A stretch of 15,982 nt of DNA from a virus, in UHGV virus genome UHGV-0177145, one strand, 5' to 3'. Positions 1 to 15,982 of this stretch are shown here, one piece after another (position 1 is the stretch's first letter; each line of letters starts with the position of its first letter). The translations under genes and the position numbers were made by a program. The notes under the pieces are model-generated. The model did not search any database. It was not told the origin of the DNA and saw only the letters and a program-made list of their open reading frames with translations.

Positions 1-2
1 TG

Positions 3-2631
<2,629 letters not shown>

Positions 2632-2633
2632 TA

Positions 2634-3806
2634 ATGGCAGTAGGTGAAATTCAAATTAGTGCCTTGCCTCAAGCAGCCTTACCAATTGACCTTAGTGATA
2701 TCTTCCATCTTAAGCAGGGTATTGAGGATAAGAGGTGTACTCTTGAGCAATTACTTGCTCCACACGCAAGCCTGAAAAATAATCCTCATGGTGTTACTAA
2801 AACACAAATTGGTTTAGATAATGTTATTAATGCTCTTCAGTTAGTTGCTGCAAATAACTTATCGGATATTGTTAATGTAGCTGAGGCAAGAGCAAATCTA
2901 CAGATTATGTCTTCAGAAGAGGTCAATAATCTTGTTCAACAGCATATTAATGATAAGAGTAACCCACACAATACAACTAAGGCACAGGTCGGTTTAAGTA
3001 ATGTTCAGAACTGGACAACATCTAACCTGTATAACGAAGATGCAGATAAGTATGCTACAGCAAGAGCAGTAAATAACTTGTACAAGGCTGTTCAGGCTTC
3101 TTATCCAGTAGGTACTATCCATCTTTCTATGAACTCTGCAAACCCTTCTACATACTTAATTTGTGGAGGTACTTGGGAGTTAGTTTCAAAAGGTAGGGCA
3201 TTGGTTGGTTATACCTCTGATGCAAGACCAGCAGGTTCTGTATTTGGTGCTTCAACTGTCACTTTGTCAGTTAATAATATGCCTCAACACTCCCACTCTG
3301 TATCTCTTAGTGGTGGTGGTCATACTCATAATGCAACTGTGTCAATCTCAGCTTTTGACTATGGAACTAAGACTACCAACTCTTTTGACTATGGAACAAA
3401 AGCTACTAACACAACTGGCAACCATACACACAATGTATCAGGTAACACAAGCACAAATGGTACTCACAACCATGATGTGTATCCTAGAGAAAATGATGGT
3501 ACTGGTAATGCTGTAGCTGACTCTGATGGTGGTGGTGCATGGAGAACATCAAGAACTTCTAGTGACGGTGCACACTCACACAGTTTTAACGTCACATCTG
3601 GTGCATCAGGTGACCACAGCCACACGGTTGGTATTGGTGCTCACAGTCATACTGTCGGTATTGGCTCACATACACACAATGGTACTGTGACAGTTTCTTC
3701 TTCTGAGCATACGCATAGTGGAAACACGAACAGTGTTGGTGGTGGACAAGCTTTCAACATTGAACAGCCATCCTTTGTACTGTATGTATGGCAGAGAACA
3801 GCTTAA
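2634..3806 (+). CDS. Tail fibre protein with tail-collar-like domain and His-x-His repeat tip
   Basis: AGGAGA ribosome-binding site before the ATG. Two N-terminal repeats of the NPH..TK.Q(I/V)GL.NV type (HASLKNNPHGVTKTQIGLDNVIN; NDKSNPHNTTKAQVGLSNVQNW). YPVGTIHLSMNSANPSTYLICGGTWEL...LSVNNMPQHSHSV resembles the phage tail collar domain. Eight HxH motifs (HTH, HSH, HNH) in a Gly/Ser/Thr-rich C-terminus ending ...VWQRTA. Confidence 0.8.
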   Translation: MAVGEIQISALPQAALPIDLSDIFHLKQGIEDKRCTLEQLLAPHASLKNNPHGVTKTQIGLDNVINALQLVAANNLSDIVNVAEARANLQIMSSEEVNNLVQQHINDKSNPHNTTKAQVGLSNVQNWTTSNLYNEDADKYATARAVNNLYKAVQASYPVGTIHLSMNSANPSTYLICGGTWELVSKGRALVGYTSDARPAGSVFGASTVTLSVNNMPQHSHSVSLSGGGHTHNATVSISAFDYGTKTTNSFDYGTKATNTTGNHTHNVSGNTSTNGTHNHDVYPRENDGTGNAVADSDGGGAWRTSRTSSDGAHSHSFNVTSGASGDHSHTVGIGAHSHTVGIGSHTHNGTVTVSSSEHTHSGNTNSVGGGQAFNIEQPSFVLYVWQRTA

Positions 3807-3815
3807 TTTCTTTAC

Positions 3816-3836
3816 AGGGGTTTTATAGCCCCTTTT
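3816..3836 (+). terminator. Short GC hairpin plus T4 run between the two fibre genes (weak terminator or attenuator)
   Basis: AGGGG(3816-3820)-ttttatag-CCCCT(3829-3833) followed by TTTT; stem is only 4-5 bp, so weak at best. Confidence 0.25.
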
Positions 3837-3852
3837 AAGAGGAAAATTTATA

Positions 3853-6417
3853 ATGGCAGATTACAAGTTGAGTGAATTAAACTCAATCGACACAATCCGT
3901 TCAGACGACCTTCTTCATGTCAGAGTTAAAAAGAGACCTGAAATGCTGGGTGATGAAGACCGTCGAATGACCTATCAAGATTTCTTAGCATCTTTTAAAC
4001 TTGAGAGATTTGTTCAGATTGCTGGTAGCACTATGACGGGCGACTTAGGGATTGTTAAGTTACTTTATGGTGGTAAAGCAGTATTTGACCCAACAGGTTC
4101 TTCTGAGATTACTATTGGGGATGTTTTAAAGACTTTTAAAATCAATGCAAATGGTCTTAGGCTAACTATTGCAGATGCTTCAAGGTCAGCAACTGTTTAT
4201 CATACCCTGAATAAACCAAGTCCTAATGAGCTTGGGATGAGAACTAATGAAGAGAATGATGCAAGATATGCAAAGCTTGGTGCTAGAAACACATTTAACT
4301 CTCAGCAGACTATTGTAGTAAACGGAGAGCAGCTAACGCTAAGAAACCCTACCAGTGGGAGTGATGCATTCTCTGCTATCGTAGGTAGAGATTCAAGCAA
4401 CGAAAAAGTTTGGGCTATGGGAAATCTAATTAGTGGTAGCCGTGATTTTCGAATCGAGAGTAAACAAGGTTCAGCCATCACTCTAGGCACAAGTGTCACG
4501 ATTAGTAAAACCCTTGCTGTCAATGGTCAAGTGCAACCTGCTGATTGGGCTAACTTAGATGCTAGATACTTTACTCAGACAGTTGCTAATCAGAGATTTG
4601 CACAGTTAGCTGCTAATAACACTTTTAGTGGTTTAAACACCTTCAGCAACTATATTAGTGTTAGTTCTAATGCTGCTGCTATCATGCTAAAAAATAAAGC
4701 TGTTAATGAGTCTTTGTTCATCCTAGCAAAAGATGTTGAAGACAATAATCTGTGGTATATTGGTAAAGGTGATGCGAACGACAATATCACATTTTATGAC
4801 TACAAAGGTGGCACTTCTATTGTCCTAAACTCGTCTGGTGCTGCATTTAACAAGAGTGTAAAAATCACTGGTCAAGTTCAACCTTCCGATTGGACTAACA
4901 TTGATTCTAGATATATTCCAGCAGAGACATTAAGTACAATTGCACGAACTAATGCAATTAACACGTTCACTGAAAAGCAGGTTATTAACACTAATGGTGA
5001 AGCTATTACGTTAAAAGGAAAAACAACTGCATCGCTTTACATTAGAGCTAAGGATTATGATGGAACGAATAGGTGGTATGTTGGCAACGACAGTAAGGGT
5101 GACACTCTTAGTGTGTATAACTATAAAACTGGTAAAAGCCTAAGCATTGGTTCCGAAGTAGCAATTAATGCAAACTTAGTAATTGGTGGTCAAGTACAAC
5201 CTAGCAACTGGTCTAACTTAGATGCTAGATACTTTACTCAAAGTTCTAGCGACGAGAGGTATTTAAGAGTAAGAAGCACAGGCTTCAATCAGGGAAACGG
5301 TGAAAAATGGGCTAAAATTGCTACTGTTGTTATGCCACAATCAGCCTCCACTGCTGTCATTGAGGTATTTGGTGGGTCAGGTTTTAATGTCAATACACCA
5401 CACCAAGCAGGTAAGTGTGAGATTGTTTTAAGAACCTCAAATAGCAATCCAAAAGGTCTAAATGTCGTGGCTTGGAGAACAGCAGATAATACTATCGTCA
5501 CTGATATCGGTCATATTAATACATCTGGTGATACTTATGACATCTACTGTAGAGTTGGTACATACCAAAATGGTACAACATCAAGAGTTCAATCCTCTAG
5601 CAACGCAAGTGTACAGTTGTTTGAAGTCCCACAAACAACTGATGATGCTCCACAAGGTATTGTGAAGGGTACTGTTGCAAAATACTACACTAGTTTGCAA
5701 AAACCAAGCCCTTCAGATATTGGTGCATATACTAAAGCAGAAACTGACCAGAAGATTGCACAGGCAATTAGTGACTCTACAGACCTTAATAAAATCTATC
5801 CAGTAGGTATTGTAACGTGGTTCAACAGTAATGTTGACCCTAACACAGCCCTTCCTGGTCTAACTTGGACGTACCTGAACAATGGTGTTGGTAGAACTAT
5901 CAGAATTGCAGCAGCAAACGGTTCAGATGTTGCTACAACTGGTGGTTCAGACTCTGTAACGTTAGCTGTTGGTAACTTACCATCACACACTCACAGTTTC
6001 TCTGCTACCACTTCATCTTTTGATTATGGTACGAAGGGCACTAATAGTACTGGTGGTCATACTCACTCTGTAAGTGGTACAACAAGTGCTGCTGGTAACC
6101 ACGCTCACCACTTAGGTCTACTATTGGTTAATGGTGGTGATGCTCAGTACGGTTATACCACTATTGGTAACAACAAGACAAGAACTCTTGACTGGCTTGA
6201 CAGAACTGATAACAAGTTCCCTAACACTAACACAACTGGTAACCATACACACACATGGTCTGGTACTACAAGCGGTGCTGGTGACCATTCCCACTCTGTA
6301 GGTATTGGTGCTCACAGCCACACAGTCAGTGGTAACACTGGTAGTACAGGTTCTGGTTCAGCATTTAGTGTTACTAACCAGTTCTACAAGTTAATGGCTT
6401 GGGTAAGAACTGCTTAA
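3853..6417 (+). CDS. Large tail fibre protein (854 aa) with internal tandem repeats and His-x-His repeat tip
   Basis: AAGAGGA ribosome-binding site. Three tandem ~106-115-aa units each ending GQVQP(A/S)(D/N)W(A/T/S)N(L/I)D(A/S)RY. C-terminus has [17 protein letters not shown] and six HxH motifs, and ends ...MAWVRTA, parallel to the upstream fibre. Confidence 0.85.
4525..5240 (+). repeat. Intragenic tandem repeat array (three ~320-345-nt units) inside the large fibre gene
   Basis: ggtcaagt(g/t/a)caacct recurs at 4525, 4870 and 5188. A 28-nt perfect direct repeat ctaacttagatgctagatactttactca lies at 4550-4577 and 5213-5240. Confidence 0.8.
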
Positions 6418-6424
6418 TCCCTTG

Positions 6425-6453
6425 TTGACTGATTGTTAAGATGGTGTTAATAT
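6425..6453 (+). promoter_or_regulatory. Putative sigma70-like promoter for the small membrane-protein genes
   Basis: TTGACT (6425-6430), 17-nt spacer, TAATAT (6448-6453). A 9-bp inverted repeat AAGATGGTG (6438-6446) / CACCATCTT (6470-6478) brackets the -10 region. Confidence 0.35.
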
Positions 6454-6496
6454 TCTTTATGGGTATTCTCACCATCTTGGCTGATGAGGTGATTAA

Positions 6497-6694
6497 ATGC
6501 CTACAATCCTAGCAATTCTTCTAAAAAATCTAGGTAGCTTCTTCTGGAAACTCATTTTATCCCTTCTAAGTGAATACATGATTGAGAAAGTGTTCTTTAG
6601 GCTTGCAAGATACCTTGCGAGTAAAACAGACACACCTATTGATGATGAGTTCGTAGATAACTTAGAAAAAGCTTTTAAGGGGGAGAATAAATGA
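6497..6694 (+). CDS. Small membrane protein, holin-like topology (hypothetical, 65 aa)
   Basis: GAGGTGA ribosome-binding site. Hydrophobic N-terminal segment (PTILAILL...FFWKLILSLL) and a highly charged C-terminus. Stop overlaps the next start (ATGA). Confidence 0.45.
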   Translation: MPTILAILLKNLGSFFWKLILSLLSEYMIEKVFFRLARYLASKTDTPIDDEFVDNLEKAFKGENK

Positions 6695-7062
6695 AGTGGC
6701 TAGAGGAAGCTTTTAAAAATAATATTGGTGCAATTGTAGTTGGTATTTTTAGTGTTATTGGGATGTATACCACCATGCAAGTCTCGGATGGTAAGCAAGA
6801 AGTGTCTATCACAACAAAGTTACAGCAGTTAGATAATTATTCCAAAAGTAATTATTCAGCTATTCGTGATTTACAGTCTGATATGAGGCTGCTTCAGCTA
6901 GGGATGGAGAACCAGAAAGTCCAGTTAGAGAATGTTAAGGGTGAGAACGCAAAACTTACTAAGACTCTTGATAAATTCTCTGATAGTGTGAACAATCTGG
7001 CTCAATCAGTATCAGCCCTCCAAGCTATTACTGAAAAGAACACAAAGAATACTGAAAAGTAA
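6691..7062 (+). CDS. Membrane-anchored coiled-coil protein (hypothetical, 123 aa)
   Basis: AGGGGGAG ribosome-binding site. One predicted N-terminal TM helix (IGAIVVGIFSVIGMYTTM) followed by a heptad-like Q/L/N/K-rich region; topology resembles an i-spanin or antiholin, unproven. Confidence 0.5.
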   Translation: MKWLEEAFKNNIGAIVVGIFSVIGMYTTMQVSDGKQEVSITTKLQQLDNYSKSNYSAIRDLQSDMRLLQLGMENQKVQLENVKGENAKLTKTLDKFSDSVNNLAQSVSALQAITEKNTKNTEK

Positions 7063-7067
7063 AGTTT

Positions 7068-7100
7068 AAGGCTCCTTTTTACGGGAGCCTTTTTTGTTTT
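7068..7100. terminator. Rho-independent terminator at the convergence of the two gene blocks
   Basis: AAGGCTCC (7068-7075), 8-nt loop, GGAGCCTT (7084-7091), then TTTTTGTTTT. Lies 5 nt after the plus-strand stop (7060-7062) and overlaps the minus-strand stop codon (7099-7101) in its T-tract. The T-run is clear only for the plus strand. Confidence 0.7.
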
Positions 7101-10864: not shown

Positions 10865-11968
10865 TTATTCGTAGTCTCGAATAACTAACCCAACAGGGAA
10901 CTGTAAAGACCCCTTACGAGTCATCTTCTGGAACTGTACCGTTAAAGGTTTCCCGATAAACTCTTCAGGGTGTTCAGCAAGATACTGTTTCTTCTCATGA
11001 GTAGTCTTCCATGAGACATCTACAAATACGTTAGGAAGAGTCTCTACAACGAACTTACCATGACCCCGCTTATCAGTCTTTACACCAGTCACTTTAAACT
11101 CTTCAGTGTGCATCTTCTTGTGCTTAATCAAGAAGTATGAACGGTGACAACACTCATAGAAGGAGTCTTCAGAGATTGAACGGTACATTGCACCTTCAAA
11201 CTTAGCTTCAACCCACTTATCATGAGCTTCATCAAACTCTTCCCAAGAATTTACACGACGAGACTTAACAGGGACAACTTTACAGCCATCTCTAAAGTCA
11301 TTCAATGGTGAAGTCTCAATGATATCTCTACGCTCAGGCCACGTCTTAGTGCTGTCACAGATATCATACCAGTAAAACTTGAGTAGGTGTCTGTCAGGAT
11401 TGTCTTCATTTTTAATCATGGAGACGATATCTTCTAAGTCCCACCCATGAGCATAAATCTCTCCATCAAATTCATCAACATCTTTGTGGAGCCTTAACAT
11501 TGCCATAATGTCAGGTATTAGTTCAGTAGGGATTTTGTAAACAGTATTCTCACGAGAATATGCTGTAAATACACTGCCAATACTCAAGTGCCTTGAAATT
11601 CTACAACGAACACCATCAAGTTTCGGTTGAGCATCAGCAGGGAACTTCAGGTACTTTGCATGGCTAACCTTTGCAGCATCATGAGCAAGCTGTACACCAA
11701 CTTTCTCAGTATTCTGTGCAGACTCTTTTGTGTAAGCATAACCTTTACGGTCAACTTGCTTTTTATACTTTGCAGCAACTTCAAAGAGAGCTTGCTGTTC
11801 AGCGTTACGCTCATTCTTTTTACCGATGTTTTTAGGTTCTGCTGTATACTCTTCAAACATCATCTTGCCATTTTCTTTACCGTAGGTTGTAATAACTTTG
11901 TCACCTACAGCGACGCATGACCAGACGTTAAAAGAGCCATCTTTATTTTGTTTGTACAGTGTTGTCAT
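10865..11968 (-). CDS. lig: ATP-dependent DNA ligase
   Basis: KLDGVR adenylation motif (KxDG, motif I); size (367 aa) in the range of T7-type phage ligases. Confidence 0.88.
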   Translation of the reverse strand: MTTLYKQNKDGSFNVWSCVAVGDKVITTYGKENGKMMFEEYTAEPKNIGKKNERNAEQQALFEVAAKYKKQVDRKGYAYTKESAQNTEKVGVQLAHDAAKVSHAKYLKFPADAQPKLDGVRCRISRHLSIGSVFTAYSRENTVYKIPTELIPDIMAMLRLHKDVDEFDGEIYAHGWDLEDIVSMIKNEDNPDRHLLKFYWYDICDSTKTWPERRDIIETSPLNDFRDGCKVVPVKSRRVNSWEEFDEAHDKWVEAKFEGAMYRSISEDSFYECCHRSYFLIKHKKMHTEEFKVTGVKTDKRGHGKFVVETLPNVFVDVSWKTTHEKKQYLAEHPEEFIGKPLTVQFQKMTRKGSLQFPVGLVIRDYE

Positions 11969-12171
11969 TTTCTCTTACCACCAATTTCTACGTCAATAAC
12001 TTGAACATCACCAGCAACATCAAACTTATGAATGATGCTTTCCACAGTGTAAGTCCAACCATCGATACGAACCAACTCACCTTCTCGTGGGACGATTGGG
12101 TTACGTTGAGCTACCGTTGTAGTAGAGTGAACAACATCATAACGGTAGATATAGTTTACTAGGACTTCCAT
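11965..12171 (-). CDS. Hypothetical protein (68 aa)
   Basis: ATG with AAGGGA ribosome-binding site; stop overlaps the ligase start (ATGA). Confidence 0.5.
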   Translation of the reverse strand: MEVLVNYIYRYDVVHSTTTVAQRNPIVPREGELVRIDGWTYTVESIIHKFDVAGDVQVIDVEIGGKRK

Positions 12172-12656: not shown

Positions 12657-13160
12657 TCAACTTAGTTTTGCAAACTCTCCGTGGAGTTTTATAGCAGCTT
12701 CACAGTAAGCTTTATGGGCTTCTTCAGGTGTGTCAAATAAACCAAGTGATGTCCTTTTACCTCTGCATGTTATAGCTGCCCTCCACTTATTGCAGTCTTT
12801 AAAGTAATATACACCCTTGTAACCTGATTTGTTAGTTGTCTGCTTTACTCTATTTTGAGCATTTCCGTATTTATCAGTCTCCCTAAGATTAGAAATGTGA
12901 TTATTACTTCTGTTACCATCAATGTGGTCTATCATCTTAGTGGGTTTGTAACCATGTTCGAACCACCAAACGAGGTGATGAATTTTTATTACGACATCTT
13001 TGAATTTAAGTACTTTGTAACCGTAAGCATCAGCACCTCCTGCAATCTGCCCAGCTTTAGCTTGTCTATTCCTGTCATACTTGTTGTAGAAGACCCCTTT
13101 GTCGGGGTCGTAAATAAAATTATCCTTGTAATCTTGAAGTGTTAGTGTACGGCGTACCAT
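12657..13160 (-). CDS. HNH homing endonuclease with AP2-type DNA-binding domain
   Basis: HNH core HHLVWWFEHGY...IDHIDGNRSNNHISNL plus AP2-like SGYKGVYYFKDCNKWRAAITCRGKRTSLGLFDTPEEAHKAY. Start overlaps the last 19 nt of the polymerase gene. Confidence 0.8.
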   Translation of the reverse strand: MVRRTLTLQDYKDNFIYDPDKGVFYNKYDRNRQAKAGQIAGGADAYGYKVLKFKDVVIKIHHLVWWFEHGYKPTKMIDHIDGNRSNNHISNLRETDKYGNAQNRVKQTTNKSGYKGVYYFKDCNKWRAAITCRGKRTSLGLFDTPEEAHKAYCEAAIKLHGEFAKLS

Positions 13161-15841
13161 GTCTTACCTACCTTACCAGTGCCTGTAACAAGCGTCTTAC
13201 TCTTTAATCCAAGATTTTTTGATGCTTGACCATACATTCTATCAATAATCTCCTTAACATCAGGTACATCTTTGGTTGGAACCTCTAAAGAGACCTCATC
13301 GTGGTAACTACAGACCCATCTAGCACCAATAGCGGGCTTCCTACCATTTAGAACTGTAAGCTTGCGCTCTGTTAACTCTCTGTTAGCCAAGTTAATACCC
13401 TCATTCTGCACCTGCGCCTCACTTCCCATAAGTGTGTAATTCAATAACTTATGTGGAGATTTACACCATAACCAAGCTCCAGCAACTTTGATATAACCAC
13501 CTTTGGCAATTGCAGAAGTTTTTCCAAAAACCTCTTCAAGTGCTTTCTTAGTTGCTTTGAAGTCTTCCTCTAGTCTATCAAGCAGTTTTTTAATCTTAGG
13601 TAGACGCACAAAGTAAGTTTGTTTAGTCAATGCACCCTCTTCCGTAGATGATGCCTTGATAGTTTTTGCAAACTTCTCGTCTCCGGCTCCAAATAACAGG
13701 GCGTAGATGCCATTTTTGCTCTTCTTACGACCTTTTGTAATCTCGTGGAGAAGTTCCTCATCCTGTGTCTCCCTGCAACGAACAATATCCTCTTCTTTGT
13801 TAAGACCAAAGTAAATACTGTTCAGTGTATGCGCATCAGTCCCTGTGTAGACTTCATAGAGGTCATTTTCAGCATCATAACGCAGATACTTGTCAGTTTC
13901 TGGGTTAAGATACTTGTCAAGATGTTTACAGTAATATCTACCATCATCTTGCTTAGTGAACTCTACTGACTCTTTACCCTCAGTTACCGCTTTAGTGAAG
14001 TCTTCATCACCCATAAAGTTACAAAGGAGAACTAGCTGTGCTGAGTTTTGGTCTACGGAGATGATATCTGTACCATCTTCACAAGTCCACACCTCCCTCA
14101 TAGGTGCTCCATAGACAGCAGCACCAGACGGTACGTTTACAATACCATACTGAGTCATACGTCCAGTTGAAGTACCAAACACCATTGCGCCAGCACTAAG
14201 GCGACCATCTGGACGAATCTGGTTCAACCAACCTTTTTCATCATCCTTTGAGTTCTCAATAGTTCTGCGTCGGTGCATCAAAGTATAGTACTTAGCAATC
14301 TTCTGTCCAAGCTCACCTTCAATCGTATCATAAGATGACTCAGTAAGTTTTGGTGAAGTACGGATTAAGCAAGGTTCAAGCAAATCTGTGTACTTCTTCA
14401 CAGACCAGTTATGTTCAATGTACTGGACACCTTCATGTTCAACATAACTCAAACCACACCGTTCCACCATCTCATCCCATTTAGGATGCTTTGTAATCAT
14501 CTTTTTGTTGTCTTTGAAGCGACAAACCTTAACAGGACGACCATCAGAGTCTTTCTTGTAGTTCCAGTCATCTGGAATCCAACCAACTGATTTCAAGTAG
14601 TCTTTAACAACTGCTACCTGAGTCATACGAGAAACTTCGAACTCAATTGGTGTATATGGTGCATCAATCAAACCTGTGTAGCGACTTGACTCAAGCTCAA
14701 AGTGGTTAACAACATGGCTGTTATAGTACTTCACAGTTTTAACTGTTTTTACTGGCTTCCAGTCTTTGCACTTCTTACCAATCTTTGCATTCAACTCATT
14801 GCAAATTGCACGAGCATCCTTCATTGCTACAAAACCTTCCTTGTACTCTTCACCAGTTACAGAGTTGGTTGGTGTATAGCAATTCCGCTTTTCAATGTTA
14901 AAAATCTTTGTAGTTGGTTTACCAAATGGCTTGATTTCATATGTCTGCATCTCACCGTTACGTACCTGTTGACGATACTTTGTCTTAGGGTACTTGGTAA
15001 TTCTCTTCAGTCCATCTGCATGACCAAACGCTTCAACATACTCATTCCAAGCTTTTGCAAATTCTTCTCCAGTGACTTTACCTTTGGTCTTAATAGTTGG
15101 AGGAAGATGTGGTTCAACTTCTGAAGCAAGCTCATTAGTCAACTTGTCAAGTTCCTTTACATGGAACTCCATAAGTTCTTTATCAGCTTTCCAACCATTA
15201 ATAGCCTGTTGACTCATCCAGAAAGATGTCTCTTTAGCTCGCATATAGGTTTCATAAGTGTCTATGCCACACTTCTTAAGCTTGAGATATTCATTATCAA
15301 GTGCCCGTTTAGTTTTGGCGTTAATGCGAATATCTTCTACAACACGAGTGAAGATTTCTGCATTCCACACACCCCAATGTTCAATCTCTGGTTTACGTAC
15401 ACCAACACGAGCACCCCATGCTGCCAAGCCATGAGCACCTTTATAGCCCTTTGGAGTTGGTCTATCCATCCACTGAACACGAGATTGGATAAGAGAATCC
15501 TGAAAGAAATTGCTCCACGGCTTACACTTTGGATTATCAAAGTTCCATAAATCAGGTGCAATGTGATTGAAAACCCACCAGTCATACCCCAGACCATTAT
15601 GGATGCAAAGTCGTTTTGCCTTTAACGCAAACTCAACACCTTCACGCAAGCCACCCTTAATGTACTTGGTATACTTGTGACCGAGGATAGGCTCATCTGT
15701 AAAGACCCATACAGGTGGCTCTTCATCGTCAGATTTATAGTCTGCGAAAGCCATTACGTGCACTTTAGTGAACTCAAGGAGTAAACCATCAGTTTCTGTA
15801 TCACCAACTAAATGTAAGTTTTTAAAATCTACGTTTTCCAT
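13142..15841 (-). CDS. Family A (T7-like) DNA polymerase with 3'-5' exonuclease domain
   Basis: Exo motifs DTETDG and HNGLGYD. Polymerase motif B KSKNGIYALLFGAGDEKF (T7-like), motif C SYHDEV, motif A-like VDQNSAQLVLL. Start moved from the track (15871) to ATG 15839-15841, which has a GAGGGAG ribosome-binding site 6 nt upstream. Confidence 0.9.
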   Translation of the reverse strand: MENVDFKNLHLVGDTETDGLLLEFTKVHVMAFADYKSDDEEPPVWVFTDEPILGHKYTKYIKGGLREGVEFALKAKRLCIHNGLGYDWWVFNHIAPDLWNFDNPKCKPWSNFFQDSLIQSRVQWMDRPTPKGYKGAHGLAAWGARVGVRKPEIEHWGVWNAEIFTRVVEDIRINAKTKRALDNEYLKLKKCGIDTYETYMRAKETSFWMSQQAINGWKADKELMEFHVKELDKLTNELASEVEPHLPPTIKTKGKVTGEEFAKAWNEYVEAFGHADGLKRITKYPKTKYRQQVRNGEMQTYEIKPFGKPTTKIFNIEKRNCYTPTNSVTGEEYKEGFVAMKDARAICNELNAKIGKKCKDWKPVKTVKTVKYYNSHVVNHFELESSRYTGLIDAPYTPIEFEVSRMTQVAVVKDYLKSVGWIPDDWNYKKDSDGRPVKVCRFKDNKKMITKHPKWDEMVERCGLSYVEHEGVQYIEHNWSVKKYTDLLEPCLIRTSPKLTESSYDTIEGELGQKIAKYYTLMHRRRTIENSKDDEKGWLNQIRPDGRLSAGAMVFGTSTGRMTQYGIVNVPSGAAVYGAPMREVWTCEDGTDIISVDQNSAQLVLLCNFMGDEDFTKAVTEGKESVEFTKQDDGRYYCKHLDKYLNPETDKYLRYDAENDLYEVYTGTDAHTLNSIYFGLNKEEDIVRCRETQDEELLHEITKGRKKSKNGIYALLFGAGDEKFAKTIKASSTEEGALTKQTYFVRLPKIKKLLDRLEEDFKATKKALEEVFGKTSAIAKGGYIKVAGAWLWCKSPHKLLNYTLMGSEAQVQNEGINLANRELTERKLTVLNGRKPAIGARWVCSYHDEVSLEVPTKDVPDVKEIIDRMYGQASKNLGLKSKTLVTGTGKVGKTWYAVH

Positions 15842-15982
15842 TTTTACTCCCTCTAAAATCATTAACCTCATACATTACTGCAAAAAATTATAAAAAGCAA
15901 GTTGACAATGTACTTGACAAGGTGTTAATCTTTGCGAAGTGGGTTTTTACTTAAAAGGTTACTTAACAGTTTAACTATACAG

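Follow-up and report, generated by a model that had tools for sequence, protein, structure and literature searches.

We propose that the two adjacent fibre genes in the stretch analysed here (UHGV virus genome UHGV-0177145, 15,982 nt, hereafter the window) encode the short tail fibre (STF) and long tail fibre (LTF) of a Felixounavirus, each carrying a T4 gp37-type tip with its specificity in a swappable head, a reading to which we give a probability of about 0.9. In this model the 390-aa STF would sit on wedge protein 2 and the 854-aa LTF on the gp9-like small platform protein from the gene immediately upstream. Each fibre would be a homotrimer with a T4 gp37-type receptor-binding tip as its C-terminus. 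After the collar, the chain would go out as a strand of a six-stranded needle, form the head and return to the collar. At each HxH motif the three chains would give six histidines to one metal site on the needle axis (iron in T4), so that nine sites are predicted in the STF and six in the LTF, and the thin needle, which would lack an ordinary hydrophobic core, would be stabilised by these sites. As the chain would climb the needle, make the head and return, the distal, receptor-contacting head would be the insert between the HxH blocks, and receptor specificity would be located there, between the ascending and descending blocks. The head would behave as a cassette swapped among related phages, with the collar, needle base and C-terminus near invariant, and what the two fibres have in common is the collar and needle scaffold and not the predicted receptor-contacting end. 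Finally, the two tips would now evolve in separate exchange pools, that of the LTF tip being common with T4-like gp37 and the STF head type being found in Felixounaviruses only. This analysis itself supplies the homology, the register of the motifs, the mosaic pattern and the DNA identity across families, and the trimer, domain layout and baseplate attachment are drawn from published orthologues.

Gene neighbourhood and the fibre pair

The window belongs to a Felixounavirus, a myophage of E. coli related to Felix O1, as 262 records were matched by megablast, mostly Felixounavirus genomes of E. coli and Salmonella of ~84-89 kb. The gene order of wedge 2, wedge 1, 100-aa platform, STF, LTF, two ORFs of 65 aa and 123 aa, and finally the convergent genes thyA and folA is the same in the window, Bas63, LMP34, REP8, phiWec172 and humlepung. 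Both fibre ORFs lie where the earlier note had placed them, at 2634-3806 (390 aa) and 3853-6417 (854 aa), and the features assigned are as follows.

1..1469, + strand: baseplate wedge 2 gene, 3' part (Baseplate_J-like); Pfam Baseplate_J, Bas63 gp23 orthologue
1466..2329, + strand: baseplate wedge 1, Bas63 gp24 orthologue; phrog_4017 baseplate protein, E 2e-173, and synteny
2329..2631, + strand: 100-aa protein, Bas63 gp25 orthologue; phrog_4141 and synteny with Bas63
2634..3806, + strand: STF gene, 390 aa, Bas63 gp26 orthologue; phrog_2097 tail fibre, E 3e-136, synteny and N-terminal identity
2634..3053, + strand: STF N-terminal, putatively baseplate-binding part and helical shaft, ~residues 1-140; conservation, and helices in the monomer model
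3054..3278, + strand: STF collar, ~residues 141-215; Pfam Gp10_C, alignment to the 2XGF collar and the T4 gp10 C-terminal domain
3279..3473, + strand: STF predicted ascending needle strand, 4 HxH (219, 230, 264, 278) and 2 FDYGTK; aligned to 2XGF
3474..3572, + strand: STF head insert, residues 281-313, DVYPRENDGTGNAVADSDGGGAWRTSRTSSDGA; variable cassette, predicted receptor-contacting end
3573..3716, + strand: STF predicted descending needle strand, 5 HxH (314, 328, 337, 346, 359); holds the 17-mer at 3630-3646
3717..3806, + strand: STF predicted C-terminal return to the collar, end VWQRTA, plus stop codon
3853..6417, + strand: LTF gene, 854 aa, Bas63 gp27 orthologue; phrog_4277 tail fibre, E 0, full length, and synteny
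3853..5262, + strand: LTF N-terminal, putatively baseplate-binding part and repetitive shaft; Pfam PF20744, T7 gp17 similarity
5263..5682, + strand: LTF mid-fibre beta-sandwich module, ~residues 471-610; characterised by fold
5758..5973, + strand: LTF collar, ~residues 636-707; BLASTP alignment with the STF collar, sub-cut-off Gp10_C
5974..6108, + strand: LTF predicted ascending needle strand, 3 HxH (712, 736, 750 as HAHH) and 1 FDYGTK; aligned to 2XGF
6109..6243, + strand: LTF head insert, residues 753-797; variable cassette, predicted receptor-contacting end
6244..6321, + strand: LTF predicted descending needle strand, 3 HxH (798, 812, 821); holds the 17-mer at 6301-6317
6322..6417, + strand: LTF predicted C-terminal return to the collar, end AWVRTA, plus stop codon

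The wedge 2 gene begins upstream of the window, whose first position falls inside the humlepung CDS. Among characterised phages, Bas63 (Escherichia phage JohannRWettstein) has a cryo-EM description in which gp26 is the short and gp27 the long tail fibre (Sci Adv 2025, PMC12609058). It resembles the window in genus, gene order and the first 30 residues of the fibre N-termini (100% identical), and by this synteny and these N-termini the 390-aa and 854-aa proteins are identified as the Felixounavirus STF/LTF pair. In the same study both Bas63 fibres are divided into a collar, an HxH needle and a head, and the attachment of each is given, that of the STF being on wedge 2; gp25 is named the LTF platform and compared to T4 gp9, and the baseplate-binding role that we give to the STF N-terminal part is drawn from this work (PMC12609058). 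In VpaE1, gp74 and gp75 have likewise both been reported as homologous to the T4 gp37 adhesin (Viruses 2015, PMC4690856). A gp37-type HxH tip on both fibres is already published for the genus, making that finding correct but ordinary, and it is the location of specificity that is the useful addition.

The N-terminal and shaft part of the STF is 93-100% identical among six Felixounaviruses, as are residues 1-180 in the genus comparison, and a NPHxxTKxQxGLxNVxN repeat occurs twice in it, at residues 50 and 110. Residues 1-120 of the LTF show 87-100% identity in the same comparison. NCBIfam has no model for either fibre. A T2/T6-type gp38 adhesin system was also considered, but no separate adhesin or chaperone gene lies downstream of a fibre gene: unlike in T4, a gp38 chaperone/adhesin homologue is absent from the window (tblastn with T4 and SHBML-50-1 gp38 queries, best E 9.4), and the downstream 65-aa and 123-aa ORFs carry no gp38-like annotation. 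Fibre folding may therefore differ from that of T4.

HxH motifs and the T4 gp37 tip

Both proteins close on a Gly/Ser/Thr-rich module with HxH triplets, at residues 219, 230, 264, 278, 314, 328, 337, 346 and 359 of the STF and 712, 736, 750, 798, 812 and 821 of the LTF; the earlier note had counted eight and six, of which the six for the long fibre stands and the eight for the short is corrected to nine. In 5000 composition-preserving shuffles of each whole protein, HxH averaged 1.4 with a maximum of 6 for the STF and 0.33 with a maximum of 3 for the LTF, and as the observed counts are never reached, the clusters lie beyond chance. FDYGTK is indeed present in both fibres (twice in the STF, once in the LTF), as are the near-identical W(Q/V)RTA ends that had been described, which read VWQRTA and AWVRTA. 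The two proteins align by BLASTP over STF residues 157-390 and LTF residues 649-854, with 35% identity (E 4e-26).

Both C-termini, for which the earlier note had drawn on the T4 long-fibre tip, belong to the T4 gp37 tip family by phmmer against the PDB, in which STF residues 146-362 match 2XGF 18-228 (E 1.4e-28) and LTF residues 709-834 match 2XGF 104-219 (E 1.1e-22). The two C-termini are thus not unrelated, and both fall in one family. A profile match to gp12-type tips, suggested alongside gp37, is not found: the PDB hits of the STF include no gp12 up to E 1, and its Pfam hits lack PF07484. The STF is short in position and length only and not by homology to T4 gp12. 2XGF is the crystal structure of the T4 gp37 receptor-binding tip, reportedly determined by Bartual et al. 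2010. A collar of the gp10 C-terminal/tail-collar fold precedes the needle region in both fibres, recognised in the STF by Pfam Gp10_C (residues 154-265, 63.4 bits, cut-off 27) and in the LTF by the BLASTP alignment to the STF, with Gp10_C on residues 646-755 at 24.1 bits, under the cut-off of 27. The LTF collar is kept at 93-100% in the genus. An AF2 monomer model of the STF, built from a 67-sequence alignment, has a mean pLDDT of 67 and a pTM of 0.28, with the collar at pLDDT 80-90 and the head below 50, and in Foldseek against the PDB it gives only weak gp10 C-terminal collar matches, none with E <= 0.001 (2FKK, probability 0.99, E 0.06). A single chain would be expected to model the needle poorly if the trimer is intertwined.

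The HxH motifs divide into ascending and descending sets of 4+5 in the STF, 3+3 in the LTF and 3+4 in T4. The ascending and descending spans are 41/26 in the LTF, 49/35 in T4, 59/44 in gp37 of the T4-like Shigella phage SHBML-50-1 and 62/48 in the STF, such that the first exceeds the second by 14-15 residues in each of the four length classes compared, as needed for an up-and-back hairpin. This span rule is based on these aligned cases; when applied to 120 STF homologues with the head taken as the largest HxH gap, it assigned the head wrongly in many sequences, as the widest spacing frequently falls at FDYGTK. Nine is the most frequent HxH count among those homologues (56/120), and the STF of the window is therefore not unusual.

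Like the T4 gp37 tip, the window fibres have a collar, FDYGTK and a C-terminal hydrophobic-R-x-A, and they would also have its HxH needle of six strands, its head and its chain running back. The needles would differ in length, with 9 (STF) and 6 (LTF) HxH against 7 in T4, and the heads differ too; furthermore, the window tips would be carried on a single-protein, baseplate-attached fibre, whereas the T4 tip occupies the distal quarter of a four-protein fibre. The T4 motifs are reported to coordinate iron, with one octahedral Fe site per motif (PMC12609058), and those of both window fibres line up with them. Side chains and metals are not resolved in the Bas63 fibre density (PMC12609058), so that iron binding is demonstrated for T4 only; by analogy with T4, a His-lined trimer axis and metal binding are probable in the window fibres, and the domain-level cryo-EM of the Bas63 orthologues speaks for such a trimer. 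The opposite view, that the HxH clusters reflect nothing more than a low-complexity Gly/Ser/Thr/His repeat and do not form metal sites, would fit the compositional bias of the region and the lack of metal in Felixounavirus fibre maps. We regard it as extremely unlikely, since the HxH positions match 2XGF one to one, the counts exceed all shuffles, the two HxH spans change length in step, and H219, H314, H316, H346 and H348 are at least 90% conserved in 67 homologues reaching down to 30% identity.

Head inserts, paralogy and exchange

The inserts between the HxH blocks are unrelated in sequence and length, with 33 residues in the STF (281-313) and 45 in the LTF (753-797). STF residues 271-330 show 9-41% identity to Bas63, humlepung and LMP34, with flanks at 93-100%; LTF residues 751-810 are 100% identical to LMP34 and 13-50% to Bas63, REP8, phiWec172 and humlepung, again with flanks at 93-100%. 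By tblastn the STF head is found in 26 records, every one a Felixounavirus; the LTF head is present in 35 records, none of which overlaps those 26. Among the 50,697 phage records searched, none has the pairing of STF and LTF heads seen in the window. Judging from these distributions, the two heads appear to assort independently among phages. Alignment of homologous phages, an approach put forward in the earlier note, points to heads exchanged between phages, fibre by fibre, but not between the two genes.

Could the tip module have been recently copied or gene-converted between the adjacent genes, giving the same receptor-binding tip on different shafts? Besides their adjacency, their common motifs and W(Q/V)RTA ends and the significant BLASTP match, the two genes hold an identical 17-mer, GGTATTGGTGCTCACAG, which we confirm, read in one frame in both genes, at 3630-3646 and 6301-6317, and for which the chance expectation between genes of such lengths is ~2e-4 by our own arithmetic. 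Its identity stops at both edges, with zero extra bases on either side, and it lies in the most conserved motif of all gp37-type needles, including that of T4 (VGIGAHTHTV). The tips are 35% identical in protein and their best DNA matches are 49-51 nt at 80-86% identity. As DNA similarity between them thus reaches no further than about 50 nt, nothing points to a recent exchange from one gene to the other. The head inserts are unrelated and the needles unequal (9 against 6 HxH). T4-like gp37, at 67% identity, is also far nearer to the LTF tip than the STF tip beside it is, which argues for exchange between phages, including across families, and not between the genes. In Bas63, STF and LTF show an equal divergence (33-37%), placing the split before the genus. 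Recent copying is accordingly very unlikely, and the two tips are old paralogues. What remains of the earlier idea of a common tip set on different shafts by module exchange is the scaffold alone, as the heads are unrelated.

The LTF head type also occurs in gp37 of the T4-like phages SHBML-50-1, AV122, BYEP01 and sutha, which belong to Straboviridae, a virus family other than that of the window's phage. At the DNA level the common segment is:

6011..6314, + strand: segment common to gene 37 of the T4-like Shigella phage SHBML-50-1; blastn 86.5% over 304 nt, megablast 87.2%

This segment starts exactly at the codons for FDYGTK and stops exactly at those for VGIGAH. SHBML-50-1 gp37 is 84.6% identical in amino acids to the LTF over the 52-aa head segment and 67% over the 159-aa tip; its needle is longer than that of the LTF (8 HxH, 3 DxGTK repeats), and its gene 37 collar and whole shaft are unrelated to the LTF at the DNA level. 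Elsewhere, T4 gp37 is 72% identical to the REP8 LTF tip and 54% to that of VpaE1 (PMC4690856). One tentative explanation, which we hold to be somewhat short of an even chance, is that the head and adjoining needle rungs form a cassette moving between unrelated myophage families (Ounavirinae long fibres and Straboviridae gp37), with recombination at the needle's two most conserved coding motifs, 5' at the codons for FDYGTK and 3' at those for VGIGAHxH. If true, host-range determinants would be predictable and engineerable as head cassettes portable across families. Recombination at a His box was reportedly treated by Tetart and Krisch; full-text searches found no literature on 'His box' gp37 recombination. 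The 17-mer sits at the VGIGAHxH codons, the 3' edge of the proposed cassette.

Receptors, fibre roles and comparison with Bas63

The receptor of each head is probably LPS-core sugars, by analogy with phages that have only part of the tip in common with the window. In T4, LPS is bound by the top of the head and OmpC by its flanks (PMC5221442), AV122, whose head is 82.7% identical to the LTF head, depends on the LPS outer core (PMC10844046), and the receptor of VpaE1, whose gp74 head is 94.6% identical to the STF head over 56 aa, is a truncated LPS core (PMC4690856). The LTF head of VpaE1 differs, and VpaE1 is not among the records with the window's LTF head.

As to the order in which the two fibres act, which we infer, the pair may follow a T4-like division of labour in which the LTF binds first and reversibly, and the STF, gp12-like, is then released from the sheath for irreversible binding to the LPS core, such that the fibres would not be alternative receptor-binding proteins each widening host range. 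The STF of Bas63 is fixed to wedge 2 and lies folded upward along the sheath, and its LTF, on the gp9-like platform, is often missing or mobile (PMC12609058), as this order might predict; Felixounaviruses are also regarded as LPS-dependent phages. The STF, however, is not homologous to T4 gp12, its PDB match being the gp37 tip, and its head is as variable in the genus as that of the LTF, a pattern to be expected rather of a protein that sets specificity in the first place. We consider this division of labour possible but rather less than evenly likely.

The two fibres would decide which E. coli strains the phage attaches to and therefore matter for host-range prediction and for the engineering of therapeutic Felix O1-like phages. 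Our model refines this by placing specificity in the head, the insert that separates the HxH blocks, and not in the common scaffold, which would make the head a concrete unit to swap or a marker for receptor prediction.

Bas63 is like the window in its collar, needle base and C-terminus, with a gp37-type HxH tip on both fibres, and its LTF also has 6 HxH with an extra His adjoining the head. Both heads in the window are other alleles than those of Bas63. The STF has 9 HxH in the window against 7 in Bas63, two distal ascending motifs having been lost in the latter. The LTF, at 854 aa against 784 aa in Bas63, owes its length to the larger beta-sandwich module at ~471-610 in place of a shorter unrelated stretch; the module is likewise missing, with a shorter unrelated stretch instead, from the LTFs of LMP34, REP8 and humlepung, and its sequence has no meaningful match in the PDB. 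Preceding it, the LTF shaft carries gp37_trimer (PF20744) in three stretches (E 1.6e-46) and GQVQPxxWxNxDxRY three times, starting at residues 225, 340 and 446, and resembles T7 gp17 (4A0T/4A0U). The shaft is itself mosaic, with residues 121-360 nearest to phiWec172 and residues 361-450 nearest to humlepung.

The tips of the two tail fibres

By megablast the window belongs to the genus Felixounavirus, whose members are Felix O1-like myophages infecting E. coli and Salmonella; the best-matching genomes are ~93% identical over ~90% of its length. The earlier note had proposed that two adjacent tail-fibre genes share a C-terminal module rich in His-x-His (HxH) triplets, and both reading frames proved exact:

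2634-3806 (+), short tail fibre (STF), 390 aa, tail-fibre family phrog_2097 (PHROG, E 3e-136), orthologue of gp26 of the relative Bas63
3853-6417 (+), long tail fibre (LTF), 854 aa, tail-fibre family phrog_4277 (PHROG, E 0), orthologue of Bas63 gp27

The observation holds, apart from one count: LTF has the six HxH triplets reported for it, but STF has nine rather than eight. In each protein the triplets are confined to the final ~175 residues, and shuffled proteins contain on average 1.4 (STF) and 0.33 (LTF), never reaching the observed numbers. As described, FDYGTK is present in both proteins (twice in STF, once in LTF), their ends are near-identical (VWQRTA and AWVRTA), and the shared C-terminal module is recovered by BLASTP at 35% identity (E 4e-26). 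Both genes carry the 17-mer GGTATTGGTGCTCACAG without a mismatch and in the same frame, at 3630-3646 in STF and at 6301-6317 in LTF, the match extending no further on either flank; it falls at a VGIGAHxHTV motif also present in T4, and is best explained as the result of strong conservation of that motif.

The predicted fold family was likewise correct, as both fibres match 2XGF, the crystal structure of the receptor-binding tip of the T4 long-tail-fibre protein gp37, reportedly first described by Bartual et al. in 2010. The match covers STF residues 146-362 (E 1.4e-28) and LTF residues 709-834 (E 1.1e-22). In Pfam the collar domain Gp10_C scores 63.4 bits in STF and 24.1 bits, below the cut-off of 27, in LTF, the shaft of which contains three gp37_trimer units. 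The T4 gp37 chain runs out of the collar, up a six-stranded needle, through a small head and back down, and each HxH motif, contributed by three chains, provides one axial iron site (PMC12609058). Alignment reveals the same plan in the STF and LTF tips of the window, in T4, in the T4-like Shigella phage SHBML-50-1 and in Bas63.

HxH motifs in the ascending and descending arms of four tips, with the span of each arm
Window LTF: 3 ascending, 3 descending; 41 and 26 residues
T4 gp37: 3 ascending, 4 descending; 49 and 35 residues
SHBML-50-1 gp37: 3 ascending, 5 descending; 59 and 44 residues
Window STF: 4 ascending, 5 descending; 62 and 48 residues

The ascending span exceeds the descending one by 14-15 residues in all four tips; in these alignments both arms lengthen together, as an up-and-back hairpin requires. 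Homology predicts nine metal sites in STF and six in LTF. A count of nine HxH is not unusual for an STF, since it is the most frequent among 120 STF homologues. The structure model of the STF monomer is of mediocre quality, and a fold search with it matched the collar alone, weakly; we infer the His-lined axis and its metal sites from homology to 2XGF and from the Bas63 maps, in which side chains are not resolved.

The presence of gp37-type HxH tips on both fibres is already described for the genus. In VpaE1, whose receptor is a truncated LPS core, both fibres (gp74 and gp75) were found in 2015 to be homologous to the T4 gp37 adhesin (PMC4690856). In the 2025 cryo-EM study of Bas63, STF measures 430 Å and is attached to wedge 2, and LTF measures 630 Å and is attached to a gp9-like platform; each has a collar, HxH needle and head, with 7 di-histidine motifs in STF and 6 in LTF, and the fibre tips vary from member to member of the genus (PMC12609058).

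Heads and mosaicism

The account of which part is shared, and of how exchange happens, was wrong in the earlier note, which saw a single tip carried on different shafts. The scaffold of the fold is indeed shared, but the receptor-binding part is not. Because the chain doubles back, the C-terminus is not the far end of the fibre; that position is taken by the head, an insert between the ascending and descending HxH blocks:

3474-3572 (+), STF head insert, residues 281-313 (33 residues)
6109-6243 (+), LTF head insert, residues 753-797 (45 residues)

Besides being of different length, the two inserts have unrelated sequences. In T4 the head is the receptor-binding part, with LPS bound at its top surface and OmpC at its lateral surface (PMC5221442), and therefore what STF and LTF have in common is the collar, needle and C-terminal return rather than the surface that binds receptor. 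Aligned across six Felixounaviruses, the fibres are 93-100% identical in the collar, the base of the needle and the final ~45 residues, and where the head allele differs identity falls to 9-41% over STF residues 271-330 and to 13-50% over LTF residues 751-810.

Module exchange, as had been suggested, does occur, but not between these two genes, whose tips are only 35% identical and whose best DNA matches are ~50 nt long at 80-86% identity. The STF and LTF tips of Bas63 give the same 33-37% divergence figure as the window pair, and since they are equally diverged the STF/LTF duplication is old. Identity of the LTF tip to that of SHBML-50-1 gp37 is 67%, and window 6011-6314 matches SHBML-50-1 gene 37 at 86.5% nucleotide identity over 304 nt; the matching segment starts at the FDYGTK codons and stops at those for VGIGAH, the site of the 17-mer. 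The 17-mer and its motif may act as a recombination anchor, a role that Tetart and Krisch are said to have suggested for conserved His motifs in gene 37 of T-even phages. The LTF tip of the relative REP8 is 72% identical to T4's own.

By tblastn the LTF head of the window is found in 35 records, 30 of Felixounaviruses and five of four T4-like phages (SHBML-50-1 under two accessions, AV122, BYEP01 and sutha), and the STF head in 26, from Felixounaviruses only. The STF head is the REP8/IME338-type allele, 100% identical to that of REP8, and the LTF head the LMP34-type allele, 100% identical to that of LMP34. As the two lists share no member, the pairing of heads seen here occurs in none of the 50,697 phage records searched. 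The LTF shaft, too, is mosaic, being nearest to phiWec172 over residues 121-360 and to humlepung over 361-450, followed by a diverged segment of phiWec172 type at 451-630. Residues ~471-610 form a separate module common to tail proteins of E. coli and Salmonella prophages; the LTFs of Bas63, LMP34, REP8 and humlepung lack it and carry, at that position, a shorter stretch of unrelated sequence.

Likely receptors of the two fibres

Both fibres are likely receptor-binding proteins with different heads, and the suggested relevance of both to host range is upheld. VpaE1, which is LPS core-dependent (PMC4690856), has in its gp74 a head 94.6% identical to that of STF. The LTF head type is common to the T4-like AV122 (82.7% identity), which fails on the LPS-core mutants waaR and waaC (PMC10844046). 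Given the dependence of both relatives on the LPS core, its sugars would most likely be the ligands of both heads. The fibres might act in sequence, as in T4, to which we assign slightly less than an even chance, or as parallel alternatives.

Gene neighbourhood

Window 1-7062 is a plus-strand gene block followed by convergent minus-strand genes. The order (wedge 2, wedge 1, a 100-aa protein, STF, LTF, a 65-aa ORF, a 123-aa ORF, then convergent thymidylate synthase and DHFR) is that of Bas63 (JohannRWettstein), LMP34, REP8, phiWec172 and humlepung. The window encodes no T4 gp38-like chaperone. The wedge 2 gene is cut by the window edge, since it starts upstream in related genomes. The remaining features are as follows:

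1-1469 (+), wedge 2 (Baseplate_J) gene; ORF-finder start GTG at 264
6497-6694 (+), small, conserved 65-aa ORF, phrog_402, function unknown
6691-7062 (+), conserved 123-aa ORF that looks coiled-coil; 'holin' in the humlepung annotation
7068-7091, strong terminator-like hairpin (9-pair stem and T run) separating the end of the plus-strand late genes from the convergent gene for thymidylate synthase
10865-12171 (-), ATP-dependent DNA ligase region of two ORFs, 10865-11968 (367 aa) and 11965-12171 (68 aa)
12657-13160 (-), homing-endonuclease-like gene with HNH and AP2 domains
13142-15871 (-), family A DNA polymerase gene

The ligase region may represent one gene that has been split or frameshifted; in humlepung it is likewise annotated as two 'DNA ligase' CDSs. 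The HNH/AP2 gene lies directly downstream of the polymerase gene and shares 19 nt with its 3′ end. Finally, the 147-kb GenBank record GU169904.1, 'Staphylococcus phage SA1', is 94% identical over 88% of the window, and appears to be a chimera or to contain contaminating sequence from a Felix O1-like phage.
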